This document shows, piece after piece, positions 37,599 to 60,292 of a DNA stretch of 64,000 nt. Position numbers and translations under genes: made by a program. The notes beneath the pieces were generated by a model. The model was not told the origin of the DNA. It searched no databases and saw only the letters and a list, made by a program, of their open reading frames with translations. Each line of letters starts with the position of its first letter. Positions within the stretch are counted from its first letter, which is position 1. The DNA is from Spirochaetia bacterium (lineage in GTDB: Bacteria; Spirochaetota; Spirochaetia; UBA9216), in the NCBI GenBank assembly GCA_963675665.1, contig OY776510.1, forward strand, positions 139,840-203,839, given 5' to 3'.

Positions 37599-37635
37599 AT
37601 TGCTCTCCTGATGTTTAGTTTCATGCCTGCTAAGA

Positions 37636-41340: not shown

Positions 41341-44300
41341 ATGGAAAAAATGATGGAAAGTCACGGCCCCTTTTATGTCGGCTTCGATGTAGGCTCTGAT
41401 ACAATTCATACGGCAGTGGTTGACTCGCAGGGCCGCCTGGTCTGGAGCCCCGACTCTCTAATGCACTTCGGTAACCCTGTGGACGCACTGAAAGAAGCAT
41501 ACGAGGGAATTCAAGAATATTTTGAAAAAGACAGCATTGCATCATATTCGTTTACCGGCACGGCCGGGAAGCTGATTGCAGAGGTTTCAGAATCTCCCTT
41601 TTATTATGATACCATAGCCATCTCGGAGGGCGCCCGCGTTATAGCTCCCGAGTCGGAATACATCATCCATGTCGGGTCAAAGGACCCGTATTTTTTTGAA
41701 AGGGAAACCGATACGGTGATCACCGGCAAATCCTTCATATCGGACCATGGAACAGGAACCAAATGCGGCGGCGGCAGCGGCATTCTGATAAACAAACAGG
41801 TCCGCAGGTTCTTTGCAGAAGATTGTCCCGTGGAACTGGAAGACCCGCAGGCTCAGGGCAGCGATGGCGCAGCGTACCAGGCCAGGATGCGAAACAGGCG
41901 CAAGCTGCAGAAGCAGGTGGAAGAAATTCACGAAAAAGCCATTGAGACCATTAATGCCTCCAACAAGGATCTTGATGTGGGCGGACGCTGCGGCGTTATC
42001 ATTCAGTCCGATATGATACACATGCAGAATTCCGGCGAACAGATAAAAAATATCCTGAAAGGGATGTATGTACGTATAGCACGCAACTACCGAAGCGACG
42101 TTCTCGGCACGCGCACAATAGATCCGTCAAAACGGGCGGTAGCTACAGGAGGAATATTCCTTAACGGCAACCTCGCCGAGATGTTCAGCAGCGAACTAGG
42201 CATCAATCTGGAACGGCCCGACGAGCTTGAAAAGATAGGGGCAGCAGGAGCAGCCTTAAAAGCGCTTGATGATAAAAAGGAATCCGGTTTCACCATTGAA
42301 TCCCTGGACAAACTAATCGAAGCCCAGATGCGTGAAATAAAATTCGCCCCCGCCCTGAAATCAGTCCTTCATAAAGTTAAAAGTTATGATGAAGAAGATG
42401 CGGTATTCAAGTCATCCGGGGGGCTTGTAATTTTCAAGGAGCTTTCCGGAACCACAGAGGTCGTAATCGGTATTGACGGCGGGTCAACCACAACCAAAGC
42501 CCTGATAGCCGGAGCGGATGACCTGGACATTATTGCCGAAATCTGTCTTGACACCGACGGAAAGCCCCTTGAAACGGCCCAGCGGCTTTTCGCAGAAATT
42601 CGCACTTATCTGGGGAAAAAAATAAATATTCGGGGAATAGCCTATACCGGATCTTCCGGGCAGTTTTACCACCGCCTTTTTACCGACTTTTCCCTGCCGG
42701 CGGCAGACTGTGAAACCGATATTGTAAAAGACGAAATCACCTGCCATGCACAGGGCGTCAGGCACTTCAACGACAAGGTTGATACAATATTCGAGTGCGG
42801 CGGACAGGATGCAAAATTTACCGTATTCAACAAAGACGGCACGGTAAAAAAAGCCAAAATGAACCTGTCATGCATGGCAGGAACCGGGCAATCGATGAAG
42901 AACATGCTGGACATGCTCGGATATGACTTTAAAACATTCAAAGAGTACGCCCTTGCTGCAGAAAGAACTCCAATTACGGATGAAATGTGCGCCATATTCA
43001 CCGAAGCAGGGGTACTGAAACTTCTGGCATTGAACTTTCCAAAAGAAGAGATTGCCGCCGCCATAGCCCACGGCTTCATGGGCGGTTACGCAAATAAATT
43101 TGTCGGCAGCGAAACCTTCGGAGAATTTGCGTCAGCACAGGGCGGGCCCTTTAAGGGCCTGGACTGCCTGGCGGCGCTGGCGCTTCATACAGGAATTGAA
43201 ATCCACGCCTTTCCCCACCGGCAGCTTTTCGGCGCCATGGGCGCGGCCATAGTTGTCTATAATGAGATCAGACAGGCGGCCGCCGACGGGAAGAAAGCCG
43301 GTTCCAGGTTCCGCGGACTCGACCTGGCCGATGCTGCTTTTGAGAAGCGGGTTGAGAACTGTTCATCAATGATTGAAGATTCCTGCGGAACCCGCGACTG
43401 CAAGCTTCAGGTTTACAAAATCGGCGATGACGAGATTTTTTCCGGCGGGCTCTGCCCCAAGGGAAATACCGAATCTTCAACCAGGCGGAGCCCCGATTAC
43501 GTCAACCTCTACAAGAAGTTAATGAACCGTGAGCTTGAAAAATACTCGACAAGCCCCGATAACATCCTTGAAAGCGACGGAACACGTATTCTGATTCCCA
43601 GAACCCTGCACTTCCTTAACCAGCGGGGAATCTTTTTCACCTCTCTTTTTAAAGAACTTGGATTCAAAGTTATAGTCAGCCCCGAATCTAACGATGAAAT
43701 AGCCAACCTCGGGCTGGCGACATCTCATTCCGAGGCATGCTTTCCGTCAAAACTGCAGCACGGGCATGTAGCCTATCTTAAAAATTTCCTCCGACCGGGA
43801 ATCGATAAAATGTTTCTGGTTAACTACCTCGGACAGGGAGAGAAGGGCGCCCCGCAGGACCAGTCAAAGACCTGCCCCTTCATCTCGGGAGCCGGATATT
43901 CCGCAAAAGAAGCTATAAAAATAGCTACCGAAGATGCGCTGCTGCCTTTGATTCTCTTCGATGATCCTATCTACAAGCTTGAGGAAGACATCTGGCAGGA
44001 TTTCAAGCGGGCGTTCCGCAACACCCCGACACCGGGAAAAATAACGAAAAAGATAGTAAAAAAGGCTGTTATAAAGGCCATGAACAACCAGAACAGCTTT
44101 AACCGATCCGTATGGGACCAGGGGGCAAAAATAGTCGAGGGACTCAAAGCAAAGGGCCATAAAATATTTATAGGAATCGGCCGCGGTTATACCCTTTTCG
44201 ACGACAAGGCGAACTCAAAGGTCCATGAGCTGTTCGTTTCAAACGGCCTGCATTTCATTCCCGCCTTTTTTCTTGAACAGCCGGATATTGATTTTTCGGA

Positions 44301-45891
44301 TATCGTTCATCATATGTACTGGTTCCAGGGAAGGGAAATGACACGTTATAACCTGATGGTGGCCCTGGATCCCCAGCTTTACGGCGTCCGGGAAACCAAT
44401 TTCAACTGCGGTCCCGACGCAATGCTCAGTTACCATGAAACGGAAATATTCAACCGTGCCGACAAGCCGTATCTTACCCTGCAGACCGACGGCCATAATT
44501 CCAATGCCCAGTTCGGCACCCGCACCATGGCCAACTGGGAGGTTGTAAAAAACCATTGCCCCGGAAACGTCACGCTTGAAGATCTTAAAACAGCCGGTTC
44601 CGGCGAAGGAGAACTGCTCAAAAGAGTAATGGGCGTTCCGAATATGGGGCTCCAGAGTTCACAGGCCCTGGCGGCTGTCTTCCGTTCGGTCGGCGTGGAA
44701 TCAGAAGTCATGCCCACAAAAAATACCGAGACCGAATATTACAGCCGGAAATACCTGATCACCAACAACTGCCTGCCCATGCATATCCTGTTCGGGGACT
44801 GTATGGCCTGGATTCACAACAAGGTAAAAGAAGGCTATGATGCCAATAAGGACCTGGCCCTGTTTATTCCGATGGCAGGAGGCCCCTGCAGACTGGGCCA
44901 GTACCATATTATTACAAGGTATTTCCTGGACCAGAACGGTTATGGCGGGGTGCTGATTGTTAACCCGGCAGCCTACCTTGACTGGGAAAACATCCCGGTC
45001 CCGGCAAAAGAGAGAGGGATGATCCGGAAAGGTCTTGCAAAAGCAACTATAGCCAACGACATTCTCTACAATGCAAGGCTTCGCACCCGCCCATACGAGC
45101 TTAACCCCGGCGAGACCGACCGGGTAATGGATGAAATCGGCAGAGAGTTTATCGGTATAGTCAGCAACGGAAGTGATTTTGCAGACATGAAGGCCCTGAT
45201 GAACAAGGCTGCCGGGGCCGTTCAGAGAATCCCCGTAAGCAATGAGCGTTATCCGAAGGTAGGTATGTTCGGCGAAATCTTTGTCCGTTCCCACGACGGT
45301 TCAAACGAGGAATCTATCCGCAAACTTGAATCTCACAAACTTGAAGTGGCGCCCAGGCTTACCGCCGACATGCTTGAGTATAACAACAAAATGCAGCGGG
45401 CCGCATATATCAAGGAACGCAGGTTCGGTCACTGGTTTGTCTCCTACATAAAAGGCGTGTACATGCATAACGCGGAAACGGCATTCATGAAACCCTTTGA
45501 AGAGTACCTGGCGGACCGCAAACAGAAACGCCCCATTGAGATATACGACCTTTTAAGGAAATTCAATATTTTCGATATCAGGATCAAGGGAGAAGCCGGA
45601 ATATCAATAGGAACATCCTATATGTTTATGACGGACAATCCTGAAGATCTCTGCGGGGTTTATCATCTTGAGCCCTTCGGCTGTATGCAGGAATGTGTCG
45701 CCACATCCAAGATTCAAAGCCTGATAGACGTTCAGCGCGGAAAGGAAACAGATGTTTCACGGAAGGTAATCCCGTACCTGGTCGGAGTTTTCGGCGATTC
45801 GGAATTGCCCAACCTGGAAGCGGAAATGGCCATGTTTGCCGAGAAATGCTACGCCAGGCGGGAACTGATTCAGTCAAGGAGGGGAGAATGA
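41341..45891 (+). CDS. Giant fusion protein: two BadF/BadG/BcrA/BcrD-type (HgdC-like activase) ATPase domains + DUF2229-like + 2-hydroxyacyl-CoA dehydratase D-component (HgdB)-like domain
   Basis: 1516 aa. The second ATPase domain has VVIGIDGGSTTTKALI (phosphate-1), ITCHAQGV (cluster Cys) and FECGGQDAKF. The first ATPase domain (FYVGFDVGSDTIHTAVV...) lacks the Cys. The C-terminal third is HgdB-like with conserved Cys (CPKGNTE, GGPCRLGQY). AAGGA lies 6 nt before the ATG. Confidence 0.7.
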   Translation: MEKMMESHGPFYVGFDVGSDTIHTAVVDSQGRLVWSPDSLMHFGNPVDALKEAYEGIQEYFEKDSIASYSFTGTAGKLIAEVSESPFYYDTIAISEGARVIAPESEYIIHVGSKDPYFFERETDTVITGKSFISDHGTGTKCGGGSGILINKQVRRFFAEDCPVELEDPQAQGSDGAAYQARMRNRRKLQKQVEEIHEKAIETINASNKDLDVGGRCGVIIQSDMIHMQNSGEQIKNILKGMYVRIARNYRSDVLGTRTIDPSKRAVATGGIFLNGNLAEMFSSELGINLERPDELEKIGAAGAALKALDDKKESGFTIESLDKLIEAQMREIKFAPALKSVLHKVKSYDEEDAVFKSSGGLVIFKELSGTTEVVIGIDGGSTTTKALIAGADDLDIIAEICLDTDGKPLETAQRLFAEIRTYLGKKINIRGIAYTGSSGQFYHRLFTDFSLPAADCETDIVKDEITCHAQGVRHFNDKVDTIFECGGQDAKFTVFNKDGTVKKAKMNLSCMAGTGQSMKNMLDMLGYDFKTFKEYALAAERTPITDEMCAIFTEAGVLKLLALNFPKEEIAAAIAHGFMGGYANKFVGSETFGEFASAQGGPFKGLDCLAALALHTGIEIHAFPHRQLFGAMGAAIVVYNEIRQAAADGKKAGSRFRGLDLADAAFEKRVENCSSMIEDSCGTRDCKLQVYKIGDDEIFSGGLCPKGNTESSTRRSPDYVNLYKKLMNRELEKYSTSPDNILESDGTRILIPRTLHFLNQRGIFFTSLFKELGFKVIVSPESNDEIANLGLATSHSEACFPSKLQHGHVAYLKNFLRPGIDKMFLVNYLGQGEKGAPQDQSKTCPFISGAGYSAKEAIKIATEDALLPLILFDDPIYKLEEDIWQDFKRAFRNTPTPGKITKKIVKKAVIKAMNNQNSFNRSVWDQGAKIVEGLKAKGHKIFIGIGRGYTLFDDKANSKVHELFVSNGLHFIPAFFLEQPDIDFSDIVHHMYWFQGREMTRYNLMVALDPQLYGVRETNFNCGPDAMLSYHETEIFNRADKPYLTLQTDGHNSNAQFGTRTMANWEVVKNHCPGNVTLEDLKTAGSGEGELLKRVMGVPNMGLQSSQALAAVFRSVGVESEVMPTKNTETEYYSRKYLITNNCLPMHILFGDCMAWIHNKVKEGYDANKDLALFIPMAGGPCRLGQYHIITRYFLDQNGYGGVLIVNPAAYLDWENIPVPAKERGMIRKGLAKATIANDILYNARLRTRPYELNPGETDRVMDEIGREFIGIVSNGSDFADMKALMNKAAGAVQRIPVSNERYPKVGMFGEIFVRSHDGSNEESIRKLESHKLEVAPRLTADMLEYNNKMQRAAYIKERRFGHWFVSYIKGVYMHNAETAFMKPFEEYLADRKQKRPIEIYDLLRKFNIFDIRIKGEAGISIGTSYMFMTDNPEDLCGVYHLEPFGCMQECVATSKIQSLIDVQRGKETDVSRKVIPYLVGVFGDSELPNLEAEMAMFAEKCYARRELIQSRRGE

Positions 45892-46247: not shown

Positions 46248-46850
46248 TCAGCTCTTCCTTCCGGTGAGCCTCGAAAACAGCGACTGCCGCTTTCCCCCTT
46301 CGGAAGCTCCGCTTTTCCCGGAAAGTTCCGAATCGGAAGATATGGCTGAAGATGTGTCCCTGTCGCCTTCTGCGGGAAGCGTGTTATCCGCCCAACCGGT
46401 GCCTACCGCAGGCACAATTCGCCTGATGAAGGGCACTGTTCCGTCAAGGCTTCTTCCCGCCTCCTGCTCACATTCCTGAAGCACTATATGCCAGGCAGGA
46501 GCAAACCCCGGGGCTCTTACCGACATTTTTTCTATTGCCGACTGGTAAACCTGAAGCTGAAGCTTCTCTCTTCTGCCCGGTTTCGCCGAAAGGTTCTGCA
46601 GCGATGTCTTAAGGTTCGAGTTCCTGTTTTTCAGGTCGTCCATTTCTTTCTTCATACCGTTGATTGACGCAGCCTCCAGGTCAATACGGTTGACAAGACT
46701 GTTTCGAAGTTCACGAACTTCTCGCTTATTCCTGGATTTAAGCACCAGGATTCTGATCCCGAAAATAAGCCATGCTATTAAAAACCCGGCTGCAAAAGCA
46801 TATACTACATTCTGATCAACCGGTCCGATTTCAAATACTGGTACTGCCAC
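46248..46850 (-). CDS. Single-pass membrane protein with coiled-coil (LapA-like topology), unknown function
   Basis: It has an N-terminal TM (VVYAFAAGFLIAWLIFGI) followed by a Lys/Arg/Glu-rich coiled coil. Confidence 0.4.
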   Translation of the reverse strand: MAVPVFEIGPVDQNVVYAFAAGFLIAWLIFGIRILVLKSRNKREVRELRNSLVNRIDLEAASINGMKKEMDDLKNRNSNLKTSLQNLSAKPGRREKLQLQVYQSAIEKMSVRAPGFAPAWHIVLQECEQEAGRSLDGTVPFIRRIVPAVGTGWADNTLPAEGDRDTSSAISSDSELSGKSGASEGGKRQSLFSRLTGRKS

Positions 46851-46935: not shown

Positions 46936-49900
46936 TTAAAAGAGACCGATCCGGGCTCCGACGCTTGGAAGAAGCACTACTTCCGGGCTGACATCCGAGG
47001 AGATCAACCAAAGCTGCCCTTCCCAAAAAACCGAAATGTATTTTAAAAAACGCCTATCTTTAAAACTTATTTTGGGCAATTCAAATTGCCCGACAACTCC
47101 AGCAAGAACAACCCCCCAGCTGTCTTCCGAATCAACGGAATTACTGCTGAAATATGAAAAATTTGCGCCCAGCGCAGCTGTTGCGGACAATGCGGAAAAC
47201 TCGGGTCCGAAAAGCCAGGAAAATGGAACCTGCGCAAGGTTTGCAAGAAGCTTGGCCCCAAATACATTACCTCCAAAACGGGAGGCACGTTCATACCCCG
47301 TATCAGGATCAATCACGGTTTCTGGCGCATAACCGTACTGCATCTGAAGTTTTACGTTGTCATCCATAAAGGTCAGACCGAGCCCGGCTGTAAAATATGT
47401 AGCGCCAAGCGCCGAGGCGTCAAAGTACATGCCCTGAATAAAACTCGGCGTACTGTAATTATCCTTGTCACCATCACGAAGATTCAGCCATACGCCTGTT
47501 AATCCGCCGTCATCTGATGCGCTTCCTGATAAAAGCAAATTCCCGAACTGCCGGGAATTTTCCTCGGGGCTTAACAGATATAAATTCGGAGCTTTTGTAT
47601 CCATAACTACGCTGCATCGCGAGTATACCATGCTGTCTTCACCGGAAATTCTAACCGCCAGATTTAACTCTCCGTCGGGTACTTCTTCGCTGTATAAAGT
47701 GAATTCCCATTTCCCGTCTTTTATTCTCAATTTTCTGAAGGTTATGCCTCCGTCAAGGCTGAATTCCAGTTTGCCCGGCTGCAGTTTTTCAGGATCCTCC
47801 GGATCAGATTCAGCCTGTTCATAACCGGCGCTTCCTTCAATTGTAAAACGGTCGGTCACATACTGCTTTTCTGACAGATTGTCAAATGTTACCCACAGGC
47901 CGGTATCGGAATAATCAAGTTCGATACTTTCACTTTCAACTTCACTGCCATACTCGTCCGTCATAAGAGATAATCTGCCCCAACCTGCAGTATAATCATC
48001 ATCCTGCAGGACGTCACAGCGAAAAAATCCGGAGGAATCTACCTCAACCGTTTTAAACAGCCTGTCGTTTAATTTAAGATGTACCCTGGAAGCCTTGTCG
48101 GGCAAAAACCCCTGAACAGAAAATCTCGGCCCGACTGATTCCCCGGGCAGGGGCGCCAGAAGTTCAGGCGGCCTGATTCCCTCAGGCAACACTTCTATTA
48201 CCCTGCTTACAGTACCGGTATTATCTGCTGAATCTACAGCCTCCGCCCTGAAGCTGTAGAATCCGGGGGACAAACCATTAATATCAAGAGTCTCCCGGAT
48301 TGTCCCCCTTGAAGAAATATCTTTTACCGTTTCCATGCCGCTTTCTTTATCATCAAGGGGCGTCAGAATTGCGGTAAGGCTTTTTAAGCTGCTGTTGTCG
48401 AACACCCTTCCGCTCAGCTCAAGGCTGCCCCTGACAGCCTCGCCGTCGGAAGGTTTTGAAAAGGTTATTTCCGGAGAAGTATTGTCGGTGTTTATAAGAG
48501 TTGTAATCATGCTGCTTACCCCGGCATTATCTACAGCCCTGATAAGGATGGATGTTATTCCGTCGGACAGAAGGCTGGTATCCAGCGGATATGTCCACAG
48601 TTCAGTCCCCTCCGCCTTCTGGAAAGTGTTGCCGTTATCATGAGATATTAAAATCGCGGCAATCCCGTTTACATCGGAGGATACTCCTTCGAGTAATACG
48701 GAACCTTTTACAACCGAATCAAGATCCGGTTTGTTTATTTGTATGAAAGGGGGATCAAGAGATACGATAAATTTTCTTTCAACTTCTTCACTCTCAAGAC
48801 CGTTAAGATCAACAGCTTTGACCCTTACCGTATTAATATCATCTTGCAGTTCGGAAAGCTTCAACGGAACCGTGAAAAGGTTGCCGCTGCCGGCTTCAAG
48901 GTAAGCGCCGTCATTAAGACTGTAACTGACGGAAGCAACACCCTCCTGATCCAGTATCAAACCGGACAGCTCAAACCCTGTTTCCGTCGCACTCATTTCT
49001 TCGGGAACCTGAATGTCCACAACCGGCATACCCGCAGAAAAATCCAAATCAAGAAGAAGAGGCTGCTCAACTTTATTTCCTGCATTATCAACAGCTGAAA
49101 CAAGGACCTGCTCCGGATTAAACCCGAGAGAAGTAAGGTTGACATCAAGATAAAAAACATTTCCATCCTGTACTGCATCAAAAATAACAGGATCGGTTTC
49201 CTGTTTTATAAAGCTTATTTCTATCTTTGAACAGGAATCAATATCGTCCACTTTGCCTGATACGGTTATCTGTTCGGCCCCTTTACTGAACGACGATGTA
49301 ATAAAAGATAACGAAGGCGCTTTTGTATCCTTCAACAGCGGAATAGAAACAATTTCGGTATTACCAAAAATATCCCCGGCTTCAAGTATTACCGTAACTT
49401 CACCATCCTCTTGATGTAGTACCGAAACCTCAACCGGATCGCTGCCTGATAAATCGGTATAAGTTTTTCCCCCGTCGACAGAAAATTTCAGGAAACCGAG
49501 AGCGGTGTTATCTGAAGCTGCCGTATCAAGCAGAAAATGTTCGCCTATTATGCTGCCGGGAGACGGCTGAGTTATTTCTATAACCGGAGAAGTTCTGTCG
49601 GAAGCTATATTCATCGGTTTGGATATCAATTCTTTTCCGTTTTCAAGAGTTGCTGTCAAAATGATGTCTTCAGCTGCGCCTTCTTCGGAAGCTGTTATCC
49701 TGAACCCGTTTCCTGAAAAGGATACATCCAGAAATTCGCCGCCCGACAGATTCATACTTTTTATCCCGCCGCCGCCCGTCCATCCGCCTAAATAATCCCC
49801 TTCGCCCAATACAATATAATCGGACGCAGCAGATTCGGGATATACAAAATACAACCCTTCCGGATCAGACAGAGAGTTGTAATAAAAGGTTGTTTGCGCG

Positions 49901-51579
49901 CTGAATTTCGTTCCGGATCCGTCCTGTCCGGTAACGGAAATATCAATCCTGTCTTCACCGGCATATCTGGGAAGTTTGATATCAAAATACGCTTCGTCAG
50001 GATTATCACCGCTTTTTGGTACAAGCTTTTTTGGAGCGCTATTGTTGAAACTCCATTCCAGACCGGAAATTCCGGCGCCCCGGACAGTTCCTGCAAGTTT
50101 CGCCTGAATTTCTGAATCAATAACCATACCGGGAAACCATTTTTCATCCTGCTCGTCAATTGTCAACGAATCAAAGATGATTTCAGGAACCGGATATGCC
50201 GTTCTGATATTCCGGCGTATTGTTTCTCCGACCATGCCGAAACTGTCCACCGCACGAATTTCTATCCGGTTATCTCCGGCGACAACCTGGTCAAGCTGCA
50301 AACTCCATGGGCCTGAAACATCAACAGATTTCCAGTCCCCACCGTTAAGTGAGTACTCAATCTTTCCGGTAGAACCGTCGTCGTCTTTCATCATGCCGGT
50401 CAAAACCGGCATGATGCCGTATATCATTTCATCAACGCTATCGGACACGCCCGGGACAGGAAGGTCCGCTTCAAGATTCAGCGGGATTCGGAATTTCCCG
50501 GATATAACATTGCCGACAATATCAGTCAACAGCATATTGATCCGGGCTTCTTTCTTTTCTCCCGTTCCGTAATCGAGCGGAAGGACCCATACCGGGTTTC
50601 CCGGGCTTAACGAAATCTCGCCTGCAGTCCCGTTGTCAGCCTCGTAGCTTAGAGAAGATATTCCTACTTCATCATATGCCCGGCCTATTAGAACAATTCT
50701 GCCGTTTACAGATTTTTCAGCTTCCGGATAAATAAGCGTCAATTCCGGCGGCCGATTGTCTATATAAAAAAGAAACGACTGTTTTGAGCGTGAACCCAAA
50801 CCGTCTACTGCTTCCAGCCAGAAAACAAATGAACCGTCCTGATGCAACCGGGTGTCTATCTTCCTGGAAAATGTCCACTGCCCGTCCGTTGTCCCTTTGG
50901 AAAGTTTTATTTCATTATACGTCTTCCCGCCGTCTTCAGAGCATGATAATTTCTCAATACCGTTTAAATCTGTAACGGTTCCTTCCAGAGCTATCTTTCC
51001 TGTTACATAACTTCCGCCGGTATGGGAAATTATATCTATCACAGGTTTAACCGTATCTTTAAAAAAGGAAACACTTACAGACTCGCTCTCGTTTTGATCC
51101 TCATCCCAGGCCCTGGCTTTTATCGTATGTTCTCCATCGTCCCACGCGGAGCAGTCTATATTCATTCTCCAGAACGAAGTTCCTTCAGCAGGGCTGAATT
51201 CCCCCTCGTCCACCGCAATTTCCACGCGCTCGATTAGTTTATCATCTACGGCCGTGCCGAGAACATTAAGTGAATTTCCTGCCCGGCTCCCCCGGGAAGG
51301 CGTTGAAATTGAAACTTTGGGAATCTGAACAGAGGGATCAATATAAATATTATACGGCCCGCCCGAACCGGAGTTTCCGGCCTTATCAACTGCATGCAGC
51401 AGAATATTATACTCTCCCGGCGGAAGATCCGAAATATCAATACTGTGCTCCCAGTTATCAAGGCCCGAAACCGGTTGCGTTTCAGAATCATCAGCCTTCC
51501 CCATTGCCCACAGGCTGATTGAAAAGAATATAAATATTATTAAAAAACCCAGTCTGCTCCTGTAGTAATTAATCATCAA
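46936..51579 (-). CDS. Giant secreted surface protein with at least 7 Ig-like repeat domains and a C-terminal beta-barrel-like domain
   Basis: 1547 aa with a signal peptide (FFSISLWAMG). There are recurring modules of about 90 aa: P(P/S)x(I/L)x(I/F)xxPxxGxxVxGxxxLxGxxxD..GIxx(I/V)xxSxDxGxT(F/Y). The C-terminal roughly 250 aa alternate hydrophobic and polar residues and end ...GARIGLF. Confidence 0.6.
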   Translation of the reverse strand: MMINYYRSRLGFLIIFIFFSISLWAMGKADDSETQPVSGLDNWEHSIDISDLPPGEYNILLHAVDKAGNSGSGGPYNIYIDPSVQIPKVSISTPSRGSRAGNSLNVLGTAVDDKLIERVEIAVDEGEFSPAEGTSFWRMNIDCSAWDDGEHTIKARAWDEDQNESESVSVSFFKDTVKPVIDIISHTGGSYVTGKIALEGTVTDLNGIEKLSCSEDGGKTYNEIKLSKGTTDGQWTFSRKIDTRLHQDGSFVFWLEAVDGLGSRSKQSFLFYIDNRPPELTLIYPEAEKSVNGRIVLIGRAYDEVGISSLSYEADNGTAGEISLSPGNPVWVLPLDYGTGEKKEARINMLLTDIVGNVISGKFRIPLNLEADLPVPGVSDSVDEMIYGIMPVLTGMMKDDDGSTGKIEYSLNGGDWKSVDVSGPWSLQLDQVVAGDNRIEIRAVDSFGMVGETIRRNIRTAYPVPEIIFDSLTIDEQDEKWFPGMVIDSEIQAKLAGTVRGAGISGLEWSFNNSAPKKLVPKSGDNPDEAYFDIKLPRYAGEDRIDISVTGQDGSGTKFSAQTTFYYNSLSDPEGLYFVYPESAASDYIVLGEGDYLGGWTGGGGIKSMNLSGGEFLDVSFSGNGFRITASEEGAAEDIILTATLENGKELISKPMNIASDRTSPVIEITQPSPGSIIGEHFLLDTAASDNTALGFLKFSVDGGKTYTDLSGSDPVEVSVLHQEDGEVTVILEAGDIFGNTEIVSIPLLKDTKAPSLSFITSSFSKGAEQITVSGKVDDIDSCSKIEISFIKQETDPVIFDAVQDGNVFYLDVNLTSLGFNPEQVLVSAVDNAGNKVEQPLLLDLDFSAGMPVVDIQVPEEMSATETGFELSGLILDQEGVASVSYSLNDGAYLEAGSGNLFTVPLKLSELQDDINTVRVKAVDLNGLESEEVERKFIVSLDPPFIQINKPDLDSVVKGSVLLEGVSSDVNGIAAILISHDNGNTFQKAEGTELWTYPLDTSLLSDGITSILIRAVDNAGVSSMITTLINTDNTSPEITFSKPSDGEAVRGSLELSGRVFDNSSLKSLTAILTPLDDKESGMETVKDISSRGTIRETLDINGLSPGFYSFRAEAVDSADNTGTVSRVIEVLPEGIRPPELLAPLPGESVGPRFSVQGFLPDKASRVHLKLNDRLFKTVEVDSSGFFRCDVLQDDDYTAGWGRLSLMTDEYGSEVESESIELDYSDTGLWVTFDNLSEKQYVTDRFTIEGSAGYEQAESDPEDPEKLQPGKLEFSLDGGITFRKLRIKDGKWEFTLYSEEVPDGELNLAVRISGEDSMVYSRCSVVMDTKAPNLYLLSPEENSRQFGNLLLSGSASDDGGLTGVWLNLRDGDKDNYSTPSFIQGMYFDASALGATYFTAGLGLTFMDDNVKLQMQYGYAPETVIDPDTGYERASRFGGNVFGAKLLANLAQVPFSWLFGPEFSALSATAALGANFSYFSSNSVDSEDSWGVVLAGVVGQFELPKISFKDRRFLKYISVFWEGQLWLISSDVSPEVVLLPSVGARIGLF

Positions 51580-51591
51580 GATGTACTCCTT

Positions 51592-54500
51592 CTAATCGGT
51601 CAACTCATCAAGCAGCCTTACATACTCCAGTCCGTCGGCAGTATAGCCTACAACCGGCAGACCGGCGGAATCTACTCCCATATTAAATCTGTTTGAATCC
51701 GTATCCTGAATAAGGTTCGGAACAGTCTGAATCTCCCAGTTCCCTGTAAAAACATCAGACGTCACGCCGGGGCCTTCAGCGCCTGTATTCCAGGCCACCC
51801 TGGCGCTGTTGCCCAAACCTTTGTAAGCTATATAGGGAACTCCGGCTGAACTGACATCGATTGTAAGTTTTGAGCCTACAATCAGATAACTGTCGATAGT
51901 ATATACATCTACATCTGCGGCGGCACTGTTGTATGCCGGAATATACGCATATTTCACATCACCGTTATAACTGTCGTAATATGCAAGATGAATATGGTTG
52001 CTGCTGTCCACCTTAAGATCAATATATTCAGCATTAATAAAACTCTCTATGGTTATCGGGATCGACCAGGTACCGCTGTTGTCCGGGGTTTCATTATAGC
52101 TGAATACCAGCTGACCACTGCCGGTGGTATCCAGATAAGCCAGAACGGCTGTTGAACCGTCCGAAGTAGCCCCGACCGCTGAAAAACTTCCGGAAGAAGA
52201 TGATACATACTGTGCCCCCGGCGGCGTTGCCCCTGGCTGGGCGGATCCGGCGCTTGCGAAACGATTGTCGCCGCTATAATCCGGCCAGGCTCCTCCCCGA
52301 TCCTGCTGTTCGACATTGGTATAGAGTTCGGTGGAGCTGCCGGTATCATTCAGCATCCCTCCGGATGAATCGTCGATGGCATCTGATGTTCCGACAAGAA
52401 AATGCCTGAATATCAGCCGTTGCTCAAGATTGTCATAGACAGAATAGAAAACATCGGTAGATGCCGAATTACCGCTGACGGCAAGATCCGGGTACAGATA
52501 ACGGTTCAGCACTGCAGACGTTACAGGCACTGTTGTATCAACAAGATTCTCAAGCCATAGTCCGTTATCAATAAAATCATATGTAAAATCCGAATTACTG
52601 AGATCAGTATACGGCGGGGCTGTTGAATCATAAAAGAAATTTGTAAATATACCGCCGTAATTACCGGCATTGCTGTCTCCGAAATTACCATTAACTACGT
52701 TTACATCAACAAGGGCAGCGTGCTCTCCGTCGGTATTCAAATCAACCGCTGTAAAGGTGAAAAGGTCCCAGTTTGTCACTACATAATTATTTTCCGTATC
52801 ATCCAGGTAAAACGCCTGCCCGAAACCTTCCGAATTATTGACATATACAAAATGCGGGTCATCTCCGTCCATAACCATAGACGGGTAAACAGCATGATCA
52901 GCCGGAGTTATTGTCCGCCAAGGCCTTGTAATATTCCAGACGCTGATATACCTGTCATCAGAGAGAGCCTGATGCACATCCGAATCTTCCTTGTTATAGA
53001 CCTCATCATTATCATTTATATTATTGCCGGACGGGACACCGTCCACAATTACGGTAAGATTACCTGAACCGGCGGCATCAAGCTCAACGAGGAGTTGTTG
53101 ATCATTATCGCCCGCATCGCTATGAGCCAGAAGAGTCCCCGTCTGCGTAATACCGTCCTCATTCAGGGCATCGGGATCAACACTCAGCCGCACGGACGTC
53201 GAGCCGGCTGCGGAAGAATCGATATTCCATCCGTGAACCACAAGGGTTTCAAATGTCGACTGCGAACTTTCGGTTAATACCGGATATTTCCCTGATGCTG
53301 ATCGGGCAAAAGTATCTGAAAATGCAGACGACAGCATTGTCTCGATCTTTGAAATATAAGGCACAACATCATATGTACGGGTAACGGAGTCGGTTCTTCC
53401 GGCTGAATCGGTTACAATAAACTCAACCGTTGTTCCCAACCCGGTCGGCAGCGCGGAAGAATCCCAGTTGTAGATCCAGTTCGCCCGGTGAAGTATAACA
53501 CCGGAATCTTCAACAAACCCCGATCCGCTTTCAAGCGGTGTATTGTCGGCGGTATATTCCAGCCTGTCGTCAACCTCATCCCATTGGGCAAAGACAACAG
53601 CTGCCGTTCCATTAATACTGACGGCCAGCGATTCTATCTGTTGATTATCTTCCGCCTGCCCCGAGAAAGGGGCCGTTCCACTGATAGATATACTTCCGCC
53701 CATTTCAATGTGTCCCTCACCGGAAGTTTTTACATTAATAGCATCAGCTGAAGTTAATTCGTAAAAATCCATATCCGGGTCTGCAATATCAGTATTTTCA
53801 ACGGTAACAGTCAGAGTGAGAGTCTCTTCATACCCCTTGGGATCGGTTACGGAAAACTCAATCTCATAATCGCCGTCTCCGTCGGCAAAAACATCTGTTG
53901 ATGAAGTATCCAGGGTACCTGTTGAAGAGACTGAACCCAAATCAGTCCAGCTGCCGGCGGGAAGGGGCCGGATCCGTATACCGTATGTTTCAGCTCCGTT
54001 TGCCCCGTCATATACAATATTAAACTGATAATCAAGGTCACCGAAAACAGTGTTGTTTTCGGTGCTGTCCGTTCCGTATGTTCTGATTTCTCCCGCTTCG
54101 ATATAAGAGTCATGATCATAATCCCAGCCGGCTTCAACAGAGGTTATTTCAGGCGCATGATTCTTGATATTGCCGCCTGTTACAGTTTCCGTGAAAGAAT
54201 TCCCTGAGTTATCGAAGATCCCGTAAAGAACTTCAAGTGTTCCGTCATCAAATGATGTCGAATCAAATTTCGCCCACCATGTCCAGGTAGAACCGGAAAT
54301 TGCCATTGATTCGTTAAATCCGTCGTCGTCACCATTGCTTGAACCATCATTGCCGACTTCGGTGCGGGAATCGATAACAATCGGAGTTCGTATCCCTTTG
54401 GAATTAAGCGGGTTTACAGGGGTTCCGTCAAGTTCAAATGTAACTTCTATGCGATCAATTCCGGAAACAGTCCCGGTATCAACTGCAGTCCCCTGTACAA

Positions 54501-57021
54501 GAGCCGTTCCTGAAAGGTCGGTCACCCCGGCAGTATATGTCCCTGAAGGCAAAAGATTGTCTATATTAAGATTAATTCCCGTAAGCGTTTTGTAATCGGC
54601 GGTATCGAGAGCTTCAAGTCTTAAATAAAGTATCCCCGAACTGCCGATAATATCATCGGAATCAATTGAATGAGAAAAATAATATGTCGCTCCAAGGTTG
54701 TTTCCGATAGTAGTCCAGTCAACTCCGCCGTTATAACTTATCCTCAGTCTTTTAACTGAATCATCGTCGTTGACATATCCGGTAAGATTAAAGGTCCCTT
54801 TTTCGTAATCTCCCGACGCATGACTTAAATCGCTGAAATATGGAACTGTATCATCAAAAGTAACCTGTACGGTTTCAATATTCCCGGCGAGATCAGGCAC
54901 TCCGTCTTTCTGGTCTACTGCCCGCACATCAATTTTTACTGTTCCGTTATGATCTATACCGTTCGGATAAAATTCTCCGTCCGCATTCAGTTCAACCTGC
55001 CAGGTTCCTGTTCCGCTTATCTCATACCACGAATCGTCGCCGTATACATCATCAAGACCGAGCAATGCGTCAAGCTCAAAAAGTTCGGTAAAAACACTTC
55101 CTCCGGCAGAGTCCTCTCCTTTCCAGATTCTAAGTTCAATATGATCCAGCGCCTCGTCCAACTCGTTTTTGTCATCCCAGGCACTTCCCGAAAGCATTAC
55201 AGAACCGGCAAGAATTGCTCCATCCGATGGTGATGCAATATTTATTCCGGGACGGTCAAGACTGTTGTCTATATAAATTCGGTGTTCCGCAAGTGTAATA
55301 TTATCCGCCTTGTCTGTTGCTTCCGCCCAGATCTTCAGCTCCCAGATACCTGTGCCTGATTCAGGCAATCCCGAACCGTTCACCTCTACGGCCATACTGG
55401 TGTTCTCATAATCAGAACTGACTATACTCCGCTGCCAACTGTAAAATTCCGAAGGCGAAAGAACTTCTGCTGCCGCGGGTGCCCAGGCCAGGCCGCCTAT
55501 CTGAAGTTTTACCTGCTTAAGAGACCAGTTATCTGAAGAAACTCCCTGAAGAGTTGTTGTTCCGTTTATAAAAAGATCCGCTGCAGGCGAAAGGAATTCA
55601 ACCGAGGGAGCTGAAATATCTACAAAAACCTGCATACTGTAATGAGAGGTTTTCCCTGAATTGTCAATTGCATCAACTCTGATATCTACAGCTCCGGCTG
55701 CAGCATCTTCCACGTCATGGCTCCAGCTTATACTCTCTCCGGGAACAATGGAAACTTCTTCATATTCATTGTTATTAATGCTGATTTCAATGCTTTGAAT
55801 AGCTCCGCCTGTATCCTCGGCAGTTCCGGTAATCGTAAAATTGCCTGAAGAAAGATAAGCGCCCTGAGCCGGCGAATCAACATTTACAGACGGAGCCGTT
55901 TTATCGATTGTAAACGGGACCACTGAGGAATAGCCGGTAAGCGAAGCATCCCCCGCTGATTTGCCGGTATCTGCAGCTTTTACCTGTAAAGCATAAATTC
56001 CGTTATCAAGAGAAGAAAGATCATAACTCCAGCGGACAAAACCGCCGCTTCCGTTAAGCTGTTCTCCGCTTAGAGACTGCCAGGAACTTCCGCCGTCCGT
56101 GCTCAACTCAACCGAATCAACATCCACTTCATCATCATCTTCTATATAACCTACCGCTACCGAAGTACCGCCCATGATATTGTCTTCCGCACTTCCGCCC
56201 TCTTCAGGATTGCTGATTACGACCCTTGGTTCATCAAGACTCAGATCAACTTCAACTTCCTGCTCAGTCATCCTTAAAGGAGCCAGGTTCTGGGTTCCCA
56301 GTTTGCCGCTGAGCTCTGCAGCCGCAATGTCTTCAATCTTTGCATCAGAGGTAAAATCCGAGGAATGATAAAGCCAGCTGTTTGAATTTCCGGCCGAGTC
56401 ATAAGCTTTAATCCTTACAGAGTAGGTTCCGGTGCCGATGGTATTAAGAACAAAGCTCCATCCGTTTGTACCCTGAAAGGATGAAACTGTTGCAGAACCG
56501 GTGACTACTGTTGCTTCAAGATGATCTATACGGCTGAAAAGATAATCATATGCTTCACCCCGGATTACCGGAGAATTCGTTGAAGCGCCCGAGGTAATAC
56601 CCTCGCTGCTTGTAACCAAAACAGTAGGCGGCGTATTATCAAAATAAAGCAGAAGTCTTTTTTCGGTTTCACGTCCTGAGGAGTCGGTTATATACAGGAT
56701 TATTGTATATTCTCCGTCATCGTATAATGACGTATCCAGGGCCAGCGACCAAAGGGTTATTTCTCCCTGCAGCAGTTCTGCATCGAAAACCTCTGTTCCA
56801 AGCACCATTCGAACAGATTCAATTTTAACATCATCAGTTGAAGTTCCGTTAAGAACAATTTTTCCGCGTACGTAATCACCGTTTTCATAGGTATCAATTA
56901 CACCGGTCGGGTTTTCTATATCGGCGGCAGGGCCAAGACCCAAAATTGGATTTTTACATCCTGAAGTAAAAACTGCCGTAATTAGTAACGTTAAAACAAG
57001 TAAATATATTATTTTTTTCAT
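51592..57021 (-). CDS. Giant surface lipoprotein with multiple Ig-like repeat domains and a C-terminal beta-propeller-like repeat region
   Basis: 1809 aa with a lipobox (AVFTSGC). It repeats the same Ig-like module as the downstream gene (e.g. KTAPSVNVDSPAQGAYLSSGNFTITGTAEDTGG..., ISAPSVEFLSPAADLFINGTTTLQGVSSD...). The C-terminal blades read NHIHLAYYD / VPYIAYKGLG / LPVVGYTADG. Confidence 0.6.
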   Translation of the reverse strand: MKKIIYLLVLTLLITAVFTSGCKNPILGLGPAADIENPTGVIDTYENGDYVRGKIVLNGTSTDDVKIESVRMVLGTEVFDAELLQGEITLWSLALDTSLYDDGEYTIILYITDSSGRETEKRLLLYFDNTPPTVLVTSSEGITSGASTNSPVIRGEAYDYLFSRIDHLEATVVTGSATVSSFQGTNGWSFVLNTIGTGTYSVRIKAYDSAGNSNSWLYHSSDFTSDAKIEDIAAAELSGKLGTQNLAPLRMTEQEVEVDLSLDEPRVVISNPEEGGSAEDNIMGGTSVAVGYIEDDDEVDVDSVELSTDGGSSWQSLSGEQLNGSGGFVRWSYDLSSLDNGIYALQVKAADTGKSAGDASLTGYSSVVPFTIDKTAPSVNVDSPAQGAYLSSGNFTITGTAEDTGGAIQSIEISINNNEYEEVSIVPGESISWSHDVEDAAAGAVDIRVDAIDNSGKTSHYSMQVFVDISAPSVEFLSPAADLFINGTTTLQGVSSDNWSLKQVKLQIGGLAWAPAAAEVLSPSEFYSWQRSIVSSDYENTSMAVEVNGSGLPESGTGIWELKIWAEATDKADNITLAEHRIYIDNSLDRPGINIASPSDGAILAGSVMLSGSAWDDKNELDEALDHIELRIWKGEDSAGGSVFTELFELDALLGLDDVYGDDSWYEISGTGTWQVELNADGEFYPNGIDHNGTVKIDVRAVDQKDGVPDLAGNIETVQVTFDDTVPYFSDLSHASGDYEKGTFNLTGYVNDDDSVKRLRISYNGGVDWTTIGNNLGATYYFSHSIDSDDIIGSSGILYLRLEALDTADYKTLTGINLNIDNLLPSGTYTAGVTDLSGTALVQGTAVDTGTVSGIDRIEVTFELDGTPVNPLNSKGIRTPIVIDSRTEVGNDGSSNGDDDGFNESMAISGSTWTWWAKFDSTSFDDGTLEVLYGIFDNSGNSFTETVTGGNIKNHAPEITSVEAGWDYDHDSYIEAGEIRTYGTDSTENNTVFGDLDYQFNIVYDGANGAETYGIRIRPLPAGSWTDLGSVSSTGTLDTSSTDVFADGDGDYEIEFSVTDPKGYEETLTLTVTVENTDIADPDMDFYELTSADAINVKTSGEGHIEMGGSISISGTAPFSGQAEDNQQIESLAVSINGTAAVVFAQWDEVDDRLEYTADNTPLESGSGFVEDSGVILHRANWIYNWDSSALPTGLGTTVEFIVTDSAGRTDSVTRTYDVVPYISKIETMLSSAFSDTFARSASGKYPVLTESSQSTFETLVVHGWNIDSSAAGSTSVRLSVDPDALNEDGITQTGTLLAHSDAGDNDQQLLVELDAAGSGNLTVIVDGVPSGNNINDNDEVYNKEDSDVHQALSDDRYISVWNITRPWRTITPADHAVYPSMVMDGDDPHFVYVNNSEGFGQAFYLDDTENNYVVTNWDLFTFTAVDLNTDGEHAALVDVNVVNGNFGDSNAGNYGGIFTNFFYDSTAPPYTDLSNSDFTYDFIDNGLWLENLVDTTVPVTSAVLNRYLYPDLAVSGNSASTDVFYSVYDNLEQRLIFRHFLVGTSDAIDDSSGGMLNDTGSSTELYTNVEQQDRGGAWPDYSGDNRFASAGSAQPGATPPGAQYVSSSSGSFSAVGATSDGSTAVLAYLDTTGSGQLVFSYNETPDNSGTWSIPITIESFINAEYIDLKVDSSNHIHLAYYDSYNGDVKYAYIPAYNSAAADVDVYTIDSYLIVGSKLTIDVSSAGVPYIAYKGLGNSARVAWNTGAEGPGVTSDVFTGNWEIQTVPNLIQDTDSNRFNMGVDSAGLPVVGYTADGLEYVRLLDELTD

Positions 57022-57118: not shown

Positions 57119-57151
57119 GAAAAAAAGCCGACTTCTCAATAGCAGTCGGCT
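57119..57151 (-). terminator. Rho-independent terminator of thrS
   Basis: On the minus strand, the hairpin agccgact / agtcggct (8 bp, 10-nt loop) is followed by a 6-7 U tract (the reverse complement of the A-run at 57120..57126). It lies about 50 nt downstream of the thrS stop. Confidence 0.65.
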
Positions 57152-57203
57152 GAGTAAAAAAGAATATATTTTTGTAAAAACGAAACAATTACTTTTATCG
57201 GTT

Positions 57204-58949
57204 CTATTCCTTGTTCTCTATCTTCTCATTTATCATTGACAGAAAATCGGCAAAAGGTACGCCGTTTGTCTGTTTCCCGGTGCGCAGCCTGACGGAAACA
57301 GCTCCTTCCAGTTCTTCCTTTTCGCCGATAATCAGCATATACGGAATCTTCTGGTTCTGGGCGTTTCGTATCTTTGCATTCATCCTTGAATCGGAAAGGT
57401 CCGCATCAACCCTGATTCCTTCAGCCTTAAGGTCCGCCGCCACTTTTTTGGCATAGTCGTCAAAGGCTGAGGCAACCGGGATCACACTGACCTGTACCGG
57501 CGAGAGCCAGACAGGAAAGGCGCCGCCGAAATGCTCGATAAGAACACCGAAAAACCTTTCTATTGAACCCAGCAGGGCACGATGAACCACGTACGGCTGC
57601 TTTTCCTTTCCGTCGTGATCAACAAAAGTCATTTTAAACCGCTCGGGCAGGTTAAAATCAAACTGTATTGTCGAAAGCTGCCAGTCGCGGCCCATGGCGT
57701 CTTTAACCTTGAGATCAATCTTGGGACCGTAGAACGCCCCGCCGCCCTCGTCAACATCGTAATCGAGCCCCTGTGCCTCAATGGCCTTTCGCAGCGATTC
57801 GGTTGCCGCATCCCACTTTTCCGGAGCGCCCACGCTCTTGTCTCCCAGCGGCATTGTAGAGAGATATGCCTTGAATTCGGAAAAACCGAATGATCGCAGC
57901 ATAAACAGCGAAAACCGAAGGGTCTCGGCAATTTCGTTCTCCATTTGCTCCGGAGTACATATTATATGCGCATCATCCTGGGTGAATCCCCGGACACGCA
58001 TAAGCCCGTGAAGAACTCCGGATTTTTCATAGCGGTAAACCGTTCCCAGCTCGGCCCACCGGCATGGAAGCTCGCGATATGAACGCTTTGAGTTGTTGTA
58101 AATCATAATATGAAAAGGACAGTTCATCGGCTTTGCGTAATAGTCGCTGGCATCCATTTCCATCGAGTTGAACATTCCTTCCTTGTAAAAATCAAGGTGT
58201 CCGGAAGTTTCCCACAGCCAGGACTTGCCGACATGGGGTGTATAAACCATCTCGTAACCGTTTTTGTAGTGTTCTTTTCTCCAGAAATCCTCGATGGCAA
58301 GTCTTATTCTGGCGCCTTTTGGGTGCCAGTAAACAAGCCCCGGACCGGCATCTTCATGCAAGCTGAACAGATCAAGCTCTCTGCCCAGTTTGCGGTGATC
58401 GCGCTTTTCCATTTCTTCAAGGTGCTGCAAATGCATACGCAGGTCTTTGGGATTGGTCCAGGCGGTTCCGTAAATTCGTTGCAGCATAGGGCGGCTCTCG
58501 TCGCCGCGCCAGTACGCGCCTGCAATACTCAACAGTTTAAATGACTGCGGGTTAAGCTTTCCCGTATTTTCCACATGCGGGCCTCGGCAGAGATCGGTAA
58601 ACCCGCCCTGGTTATAGGTTGTGATAACCTCGTTTTCGGGCAGTTCATTGATGAGCTCAATCTTATAAGGCTGATCCTTGAACATTTCAAGGGCCTCGGT
58701 TTTGGTAACCTCTTTTCTGATGAAATCCTTGCCGGCTTTCATGATCCCGCGCATACCGTCGCTGATTTCTTCCAGATCTTCCGGCGTCAATGATCTGGGC
58801 AGTTCAAAGTCATAGTAAAAACCGTTTTCAATCGAAGGCCCGATTGCAATCTTTGCCTCCGGGAATTTCTCAAGAACAGCCTCCGCCATGATATGCGCGG
58901 TAGAATGCCTGATCAAATCAAGTTTTCCCTGTTTCTCGTCGTTTTTCAT
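57204..58949 (-). CDS. thrS: Threonyl-tRNA synthetase (short form lacking the N-terminal TGS domain)
   Basis: 581 aa. It is collinear with E. coli ThrRS from the N2 editing domain onward (LIRHSTAHIMAEAV..., MNCPFH, RVRGFTQDDAHI, anticodon-binding C-terminus). It starts right after the region where the TGS domain would be. Confidence 0.85.
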   Translation of the reverse strand: MKNDEKQGKLDLIRHSTAHIMAEAVLEKFPEAKIAIGPSIENGFYYDFELPRSLTPEDLEEISDGMRGIMKAGKDFIRKEVTKTEALEMFKDQPYKIELINELPENEVITTYNQGGFTDLCRGPHVENTGKLNPQSFKLLSIAGAYWRGDESRPMLQRIYGTAWTNPKDLRMHLQHLEEMEKRDHRKLGRELDLFSLHEDAGPGLVYWHPKGARIRLAIEDFWRKEHYKNGYEMVYTPHVGKSWLWETSGHLDFYKEGMFNSMEMDASDYYAKPMNCPFHIMIYNNSKRSYRELPCRWAELGTVYRYEKSGVLHGLMRVRGFTQDDAHIICTPEQMENEIAETLRFSLFMLRSFGFSEFKAYLSTMPLGDKSVGAPEKWDAATESLRKAIEAQGLDYDVDEGGGAFYGPKIDLKVKDAMGRDWQLSTIQFDFNLPERFKMTFVDHDGKEKQPYVVHRALLGSIERFFGVLIEHFGGAFPVWLSPVQVSVIPVASAFDDYAKKVAADLKAEGIRVDADLSDSRMNAKIRNAQNQKIPYMLIIGEKEELEGAVSVRLRTGKQTNGVPFADFLSMINEKIENKE

Positions 58950-59407: not shown

Positions 59408-60292
59408 TCAGTTGATTTCGGAAGTCAGTTCAACGGATATAAAATGTATATCAACAGGTTCTTCATTAAAATCCGTCCAGCTGTCGGTTAGTCTCTCGAC
59501 ACCCAGATACAATGCGGCCCTGCCTGTTTCTCCTGAAACGGCGATCCCTCCGCGCAGGCTGCAGTCGATTCCCAGGGGCGCCAGACCTGTTACCAAAGTG
59601 TCTTCCGTTCGTTGTGTAAGTGAAACGGAACCGTCGGCCAATACGGCCAGCTGCGGTTCCGATAAAAACTCGCCGCAAATCCTGAAAAATCCCGCGGCAT
59701 GCCGCAAATCCGGCTGGGGCGGAGCTTCCTGAAAAACCGCGGGCAGGTTGATTCCTCCCTCAACCGCCATGTTTGCGGTTAAAAGAAACCGTCCGGCATC
59801 AACAAGTTTAAAATCGTCCCCTGGTCTGACGGCAAGGAACAGGAGATCATGAATCTGCAGCCGGACGGAACGCCGGTCAACCTCATGTTTGCAGTCGTGC
59901 TGAAACCCGGATTCAATTAGTACAGGGTTCAGATTGATGTACATTAAAAGACGTAAATCGGAAATAATCGAGCCTGCATTGAATATCCATTCACTTAAAG
60001 GTTCGGGCGCCGCGGAGAAATGAAAAGTTTCTTCGGCAAGCCCTGAAACTGCAAAAAAACTGCTCGAGAATATGTTGATATTAACTCCGCATTTCCAGTC
60101 ATGGCCGAAATCCGGAACCTGCTGCTGATTAAGAACATGCCGGAAAGAAACCCAGCTGCCTGCTCCCGTCATTACCCCGGGGGTTTCGGAAAAAACAGGG
60201 GTATAAAAGATTTGAGGAGTTTTTACTACCTGGGCAAAGAGGGGGATAGCCATAAGCAGTAATAAAAATGATATGTATGTTTTCTTTCTCAT
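59408..60292 (-). CDS. Secreted/outer-membrane-associated protein, unknown function
   Basis: 294 aa with a signal peptide (FLLLLMAIPLFAQ). It has amphipathic beta-like segments and no recognisable catalytic motif. Confidence 0.4.
   Translation of the reverse strand: MRKKTYISFLLLLMAIPLFAQVVKTPQIFYTPVFSETPGVMTGAGSWVSFRHVLNQQQVPDFGHDWKCGVNINIFSSSFFAVSGLAEETFHFSAAPEPLSEWIFNAGSIISDLRLLMYINLNPVLIESGFQHDCKHEVDRRSVRLQIHDLLFLAVRPGDDFKLVDAGRFLLTANMAVEGGINLPAVFQEAPPQPDLRHAAGFFRICGEFLSEPQLAVLADGSVSLTQRTEDTLVTGLAPLGIDCSLRGGIAVSGETGRAALYLGVERLTDSWTDFNEEPVDIHFISVELTSEIN

Follow-up and report, generated by a model that had tools for sequence, protein, structure and literature searches.

In the genome of a Spirochaetia bacterium (GenBank assembly GCA_963675665.1, contig OY776510.1), a stretch of 64,000 nucleotides (nt) at positions 139,840 to 203,839 of the forward strand, hereafter the window, was found to carry two adjacent giant genes on its minus strand, here called A and B. 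Gene A (51592..57021, ATG start) encodes a putative lipoprotein of 1809 amino acids (aa), and gene B (46936..51579) encodes a protein of 1547 aa when read from a TTG start, or of 1546 aa from an ATG one codon on. Both proteins are built from the same immunoglobulin (Ig)-like module, B ends in a predicted outer-membrane beta-barrel, and the pair is conserved almost only in spirochaetes. The parts are of known kinds; the pair and its architecture are undescribed in the databases and literature searched. A public copy of B (P0017) starts at ATG and is otherwise 100% identical to the B of the window, and the exact sequence of protein A is also present in public collections, without a name. The two open reading frames (ORFs) lie exactly as described in an earlier note made from the letters of the window, 12 nt apart on the same strand, and the spacer between them (51580..51591) contains an AAGGAG ribosome-binding site, an arrangement that suggests co-transcription and coupled translation. 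All features of the window given below with coordinates lie on the minus strand unless stated otherwise.

Domain anatomy of the two proteins

An Ig-like module common to both proteins had been read in the earlier note, and comparison of the repeats with known families bore this out. Pfam Big_7 (PF17957, gathering cut-off 24.1 bits) was matched by A with 93.2 bits (E = 1.6e-26) and by B with 159.9 bits (E = 2.4e-47), and both proteins also matched Big_13 and Big_3_3. Far above chance, 22 modules of about 95 aa were detected by a profile iterated from a single B module, 10 of them in A and another 12 over aa 18-1412 of B, with per-module E-values of 4e-8 to 5e-29. The chain of A consists of its 10 modules (aa 32-1220; 53362..56928; E 4e-8 to 1e-24 per module), and that of B (aa 82-1374; 47458..51336) of 11 detected modules and two weakly Ig-like stretches, at aa 462-658 and 1131-1221. 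Modules of A and B were found to be 24-29% identical to each other, and Tandem Repeats Finder reported no DNA-level tandem repeats in the two genes. Together, the low identity and the lack of repetition in the DNA point to ancient, diverged modules. The repeat module is the only element that B has in common with Leptospira OmpL47: with the OmpL47-type domain model NF047446 (cut-off 40), the B modules scored 77 bits and the A modules 22 bits, below the cut-off, and the scores with the full-length OmpL47 equivalog model NF047441, 33 and 55 bits, fell far short of its cut-off of 250. In addition, the mature proteins are very acidic, with isoelectric points (pI) of 4.05 and 4.28, and the Ig arrays are poor in cysteine.

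Protein A begins with a signal peptide and lipobox (aa 1-22; 56956..57021), MKKIIYLLVLTLLITAVFTSG-C, read by eye and ending in ..AVFTSG-C22. The lipobox cysteine, already pointed out in the earlier note, is kept in 26 of 26 partner N-termini examined and is followed by a conserved GLGxxVDxxxP in all complete partner proteins. These features support A as a probable lipoprotein, lipid-anchored at Cys22, and its first Ig module starts within a few residues of the lipid-carrying cysteine. The opposite end is formed by a conserved C-terminal head of 590 aa (aa 1221-1809; 51595..53361), and the equivalent region is always C-terminal in the partner proteins. No usable Pfam or NCBIfam match was obtained for this region, and a profile of it gave 0 matches against PDB sequences. 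The propeller-like blades described in the earlier note were recovered at the level of fold only. Herein, hhalign aligned the last 200 residues of A with the blade repeats of a distant BNR_4-carrying relative at a probability of 96%, and a model from a shallow 9-sequence alignment matched beta-propellers only, a result that is no more than indicative given the low confidence of the model, with a predicted local distance difference test (pLDDT) score of 43.8 overall and 70-84 at region residues 400-530. The C-terminus of A is described here as propeller-like with low confidence.

Protein B starts with a type-I signal peptide (aa 1-25; 51505..51579), cleaved probably after LWA, and all B-type proteins begin with a counterpart of it that ends in ..FA/GGK or ..YA/MGR. 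Next in B comes a half Ig module (aa 28-81; 51337..51498), which is conserved and aligns with no more of the module profile than positions 44-98. Of the 58 B-type N-termini printed (related loci L002-L081), nearly all have such a half module of about 55 aa directly after the signal peptide, with the consensus ..G..NW.H.IDIS...PG.YNI.V.A.D.AGN...GPYNI.IDP.SDLP. It could serve as a docking head, or may need strands from a partner. In each protein of the pair, one end is anchored and the other forms a free, conserved head, namely the lipobox and the propeller-like head in A, and the barrel and the half Ig module in B.

The last 173 residues of B (aa 1375-1547, PSFIQG...GARIGLF; 46939..47457) make up the barrel tail. 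AlphaFold2 run on a 10-sequence alignment of this tail gave a model with eight long strands (pLDDT 84.5), predicted to form a closed barrel of eight antiparallel membrane-spanning strands of the OmpA/OmpX/OmpW type. The beta-rich tail ending in Phe that the earlier note had described was recovered in this barrel, with a size of 173 aa in place of about 250 aa. Among 148 relatives, strands b1, b2, b3, b5 and b8 show a clean alternation between a hydrophobic face (mean hydropathy +2 to +2.7) and a face on which Gly is invariant and D13, K36, Q38, K69, N73, N99, Q124, E126, E146, Q148 and R169 (tail numbering) are conserved. The combination of a hydrophobic and a conserved polar face argues for an OmpA-like membrane barrel, its lumen filled by polar residues, and against a pore or a soluble barrel. 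Of the 148 relatives, 131 end in Phe and 14 in Leu, in keeping with an aromatic assembly signal. Furthermore, loops L2 and L3 differ between relatives both in sequence (entropy about 2.9 bits) and in length (standard deviation 6.5 and 3.7 residues), turns T1 and T2 are conserved and of fixed length, and the link between the barrel and the last Ig module consists of 8 conserved residues with no helix. Altogether, these properties support the role of the tail as an outer-membrane barrel anchor.

No Pfam match, even at E-values up to 10, and no NCBIfam match was found for the tail, which places it outside the described barrel families. Small eight-stranded barrels of the same kind (the N-terminal domain of OmpA/OprF, NspA, OmpX, OmpW and PagL) are only 7-14% identical to it in sequence. 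In OmpA/OprF, the barrel is N-terminal and is followed by a periplasmic peptidoglycan-binding domain, whereas in B it forms the C-terminus of a giant protein. Both ends of OmpA/OmpX-like barrels are periplasmic, and in the usual pattern the loops outside vary while the turns in the periplasm are conserved. The strands of the B barrel are even in number, the short turns on one side of it are conserved and the loops on the opposite side are variable, so that the Ig chain of B would start on the periplasmic face.

Family, pairing and comparison with known systems

An exhaustive profile search with the tail, run against 1.84 billion representatives, returned only the tail's own family. This family comprises 251 clusters of proteins of about 1300-2600 aa, apart from some shorter entries that seem to be fragments. 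The tail always forms the very end of the protein, and the barrel is found at the extreme C-terminus in 150 of 150 listed relatives. A word-indexed protein search badly under-reported both the tail family and that of the A head, with 11 matches for the tail and 3-8 for the C-terminus of A. By scanning species-representative genomes, 131 relatives were confirmed, and the statements on their loci made here rest on the 80 loci listed of these 131. Spirochaetota (Treponemataceae, Spirochaetaceae, Breznakiellaceae and others) account for the titles of 78 of the 80, the remaining two being one Bacteroidaceae and one untitled metagenome chromosome. The closest named relative among the listed loci is a Spirochaeta sp. 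UBA9216 metagenome-assembled genome, and the sole cultured carrier noticed is Rarispira pelagica. In their sources, the relatives are named only 'hypothetical protein' or 'Ig-like domain-containing protein'. The locus titled 'Bacteroidaceae bacterium' (L078, CAVBEH010000015.1) bears a spirochaete barrel-tail gene in a layout near-identical to that of the Treponema locus L080, and is therefore probably mis-binned.

In the fetched loci, the barrel gene adjoins a giant same-strand gene that encodes the lipobox cysteine, GLGxxVDxxxP and Ig modules, and the A-type C-terminal region is present in this neighbouring lipoprotein wherever the end of its gene is visible. The pair was found in about 47 loci; about 10 loci with both flanks visible lack it, and the others are incomplete at their flanks. 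Two size classes of the lipoprotein can be distinguished (loci L012-L073; e.g. L036:10532-20251 and L056:10523-20170). In the first, as in the window, a protein of about 1550-1890 aa is encoded upstream of the barrel gene, and in the second, found in many Treponema, a protein of about 3140-3400 aa is encoded downstream of it. The lengths of the two partners show no obvious relation to each other. In Rarispira, the partner gene is convergent and lies one gene away from the barrel gene. The flanking genes vary by lineage, being parA-parB, a 7TMR-DISM cyclase or threonyl-tRNA synthetase (ThrRS), and only the pair itself is conserved. This persistence of the pairing in dozens of spirochaete genomes, while the flanks change, supports the view that A and B probably belong together.

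Some details of individual loci may be added. In many Treponema genomes the pair stands directly downstream of parA-parB (e.g. L018:2399-4118 and L029:3252-4989), and in others it follows a 7TMR-DISM adenylate/guanylate cyclase. In L001, a 982-kb contig, and in L054, the pair is split into many short overlapping ORFs, which most likely reflect frameshift errors of long-read assemblies and not real pseudogenes.

Several known systems were compared with the pair. Leptospira LigA and LigB are, like A, spirochaetal lipoproteins of tandem bacterial Ig-like modules. They are built from Big_2 modules and act as surface adhesins of pathogenic Leptospira, and they are not known to have a barrel-anchored partner or a propeller head. 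In the Pfam scan, the A modules gave Big_7 and Big_13 matches and no Big_2 match. As for B, OmpM and SlpA are reported to have an N-terminal periplasmic region and a C-terminal barrel (PMC10628300, PMC9388160), which is the order of parts proposed for B. The parts themselves differ: OmpM/SlpA combine an SLH domain and a coiled coil with a large barrel of the porin type, whereas B has Ig modules and eight strands; a tether of this kind was set aside, with no SLH match in A or B.

Type V secretion systems, including the Hop/Hor proteins, resemble B in that a large N-terminal region is followed by a C-terminal outer-membrane barrel. A classical autotransporter (type Va), with a 12-stranded PF03797 barrel and a linker running through the pore, was rejected: B has eight strands, an 8-residue link with no helix, and no PF03797 match. 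In the inverse autotransporters (intimin/invasin, type Ve), an N-terminal barrel precedes a C-terminal Ig passenger, and this order is reversed in B. The Hop/Hor barrel is completed by an N-terminal strand. Such an interrupted barrel was also rejected, given that B shows no Hp_OMP match, that its C-terminal domain alone is eight-stranded and that its mature N-terminus is polar. A cargo of the type IX secretion system was discarded as well, with no match to the C-terminal-domain models and a single related line, a 21-residue PorU sortase match (E = 0.016) that counts as noise. The same holds for a type I-secreted RTX adhesin, with no HemolysinCabind/RTX match and with N-terminal Sec signals on both proteins. 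In agreement with the earlier note, which had seen no RTX, type V, type IX or LPXTG signals, none was found in the profile scans of A and B.

Arrangement of the pair in the cell envelope

The reading placed first, tentatively and at somewhat less than even confidence, is that of an assembly hung from the outer membrane, in which the chain of B lies under the membrane and A and B act together as an envelope pair. Herein, B would be exported by Sec, and the barrel-assembly machinery (BAM) would fold its last 173 residues into the outer membrane as a closed eight-stranded OmpA/OmpX-like barrel that serves as an anchor only. Because both ends of the barrel should be periplasmic and the link to the last Ig module measures only 8 residues, the B chain of about 1350 aa, with about 13 Ig-like modules, would hang from the inner face of the outer membrane and end in the conserved half-Ig head. 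A would be lipid-anchored at Cys22 and would carry 10 like modules and, at the end, the conserved propeller-like head. Made together, as the 12-nt spacer suggests, A and B would also work as a unit, the most likely form being a structural assembly of fibres fixed to the outer sheath. The earlier note had likened the two proteins to a lipoprotein cargo with an outer-membrane anchor. The lipoprotein, the barrel anchor and the conserved pairing hold; the cargo finds no support, since a small closed eight-stranded barrel with a conserved polar interior is not expected to be a translocator, and nothing suggests that A is carried by it.

A number of observations weigh against this periplasmic arrangement. 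The orientation of the barrel was read from sequence patterns and not from coordinates, and the model of the propeller-like head is poor (pLDDT 43.8). Long bacterial Ig-like arrays are nearly always extracellular, and both A and B are very acidic (pI 4.1-4.3). In comparison with the closest relative, the Ig chain of B is 29-67% identical and the barrel 85%. In addition, the lengths of the partners vary widely, from 1380 to 2400 aa for B and from 1550 to 3400 aa for A, and such variation seems to suit surface fibrils better than a fixed-length spacer.

A surface assembly, in which both Ig chains lie outside as adhesive fibrils or an S-layer-like coat, is a strong rival, at lower confidence. A would then be flipped to the surface like other spirochaetal lipoproteins, and the chain of B would be exported in a BAM-assisted, type-V-like route via the eight-stranded barrel. 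The acidic, cysteine-poor Ig arrays, the fast divergence of the B chain and the varying lengths of both partners speak for it, and surface Ig-repeat lipoproteins do exist in spirochaetes, as the Leptospira Lig proteins show. Furthermore, the Hop/Hor (Hp_OMP) adhesins of H. pylori, for which a genus-specific type V system was proposed, have a small barrel at the C-terminus and an extracellular domain at the N-terminus (PMC5727368). Against this stand the eight strands, the conserved polar lumen and a link that is neither helical nor extended enough to cross the barrel, together with the lack of a Pfam Autotransporter or Hp_OMP match in B. A separate N-terminal strand that could place the chain in an outside loop is also missing, the mature N-terminus being polar and the C-terminal domain already complete with eight strands. 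Moreover, eight-stranded translocators are not known, and since the B chain would start in the periplasm, its display on the surface would need an export step of a kind not known. The large adhesin or S-layer-like surface assembly suggested in the earlier note is therefore not supported as it was put, as the usual barrel topology would place the B chain in the periplasm, and a surface reading is possible above all for lipoprotein A.

A split arrangement is rated as improbable; in it, A is a surface lipoprotein and the B chain is periplasmic, the two being linked only via the loops of the B barrel or merely co-regulated. The topology fixes only B, the sorting of A cannot be read from its sequence, and only a few residues separate the lipid-carrying cysteine of A from its first Ig module, all of which would fit. 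However, the barrel loops on the outside, being short and variable, would make a poor conserved docking site, and the common module type and tight genomic linkage suggest a single compartment. It is less probable still that A and B form no functional pair and are neighbouring paralogues from a duplicated Ig-repeat gene, each acting alone. Although their modules are homologous (24-29% identity), the adjacency persists across families despite swapped order and changed flanks, and each protein has kept its distinct conserved ends, the lipobox and propeller-like head in A and the half-Ig head and barrel in B. Finally, a soluble eight-stranded barrel of the avidin, lipocalin or YceI type at the C-terminus of B in place of a membrane anchor, an outcome that the earlier note had raised, is very improbable in view of the strongly hydrophobic strand face, the conserved charged residues and Gly on the other face, and the terminal Phe or Leu of the family, as expected for a barrel-assembly signal.

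A bolder proposal, doubtful at present, is that the pair builds a large spirochaete-specific envelope structure that is new at the molecular level. This could be a periplasmic Ig skeleton, hung by eight-stranded barrels and lipid anchors, that spaces or stiffens the sheath over the periplasmic flagella; or it could be a new type-V-like route of display, with an eight-stranded barrel serving both the export and the anchoring of a chain longer than 1300 aa. Cryo-tomograms of treponemes show unassigned surface or periplasmic densities, and either form of such a structure could account for some of them.

Few outer-membrane proteins of spirochaetes are known, and the field is driven by questions of vaccines and motility. 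The pair described here is conserved and near single-copy, exceeds 3300 aa in total and carries a barrel tail for which databases hold no model. If the chains are periplasmic, as in the arrangement favoured here, a long protein array would hang in an unusual manner from the inner face of the outer membrane, which bears on the relation between the sheath and the periplasmic flagella. Should the chains lie on the surface, a giant passenger on an eight-stranded barrel would extend the known range of type-V-like secretion, and the proteins could be dominant surface antigens or adhesins in the treponemes of gut, rumen and termites. For annotation of the family, two simple markers can serve, PSFIQG...GxRxGLF for the barrel tail and C..GLG..VD...P for the start of the lipoprotein.

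Surroundings of the pair in the window

Upstream of A, on the same strand, lies the gene of ThrRS (57204-58949). Between the two, 3' of the ThrRS gene, a terminator-like hairpin with a T-run was read from the sequence (57119..57152), which suggests that A and B have an upstream region of their own. This hairpin is not on the list of the terminator scan, as its loop exceeds 8 nt, and the promoter and terminator scan of the window performed no better than on shuffled sequence. The tRNA and Rfam scans of the window gave 0 tRNA and 0 Rfam matches. Two further ORFs, of 294 aa (59408-60292) and 276 aa (61470-62300), are without a Pfam match.

Downstream of B, a gene for a 200-aa protein with one transmembrane helix and a coiled coil (46248..46850; weak LapA_dom match) starts 85 nt past B with an AGGAG of its own, and is possibly co-transcribed with A and B. 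Among the relatives, only the closest one (L002) has a counterpart, at 76% identity, and this gene was consequently dropped as a third component of the system. The genes beyond it are metabolic and unrelated to the pair. Near A and B, on the opposite strand (41341-45891, plus), a 1516-aa fusion of two BcrAD/BadFG ATPase domains and DUF2229, of the CoA-enzyme activase type, is encoded, separated from the pair by an EamA-type ORF and the 200-aa gene. At 35322-39531, a glycyl-radical enzyme (PFL-like and Gly_radical domains) stands beside an aldehyde:ferredoxin oxidoreductase, forming an anaerobic metabolic cluster unrelated to the pair.

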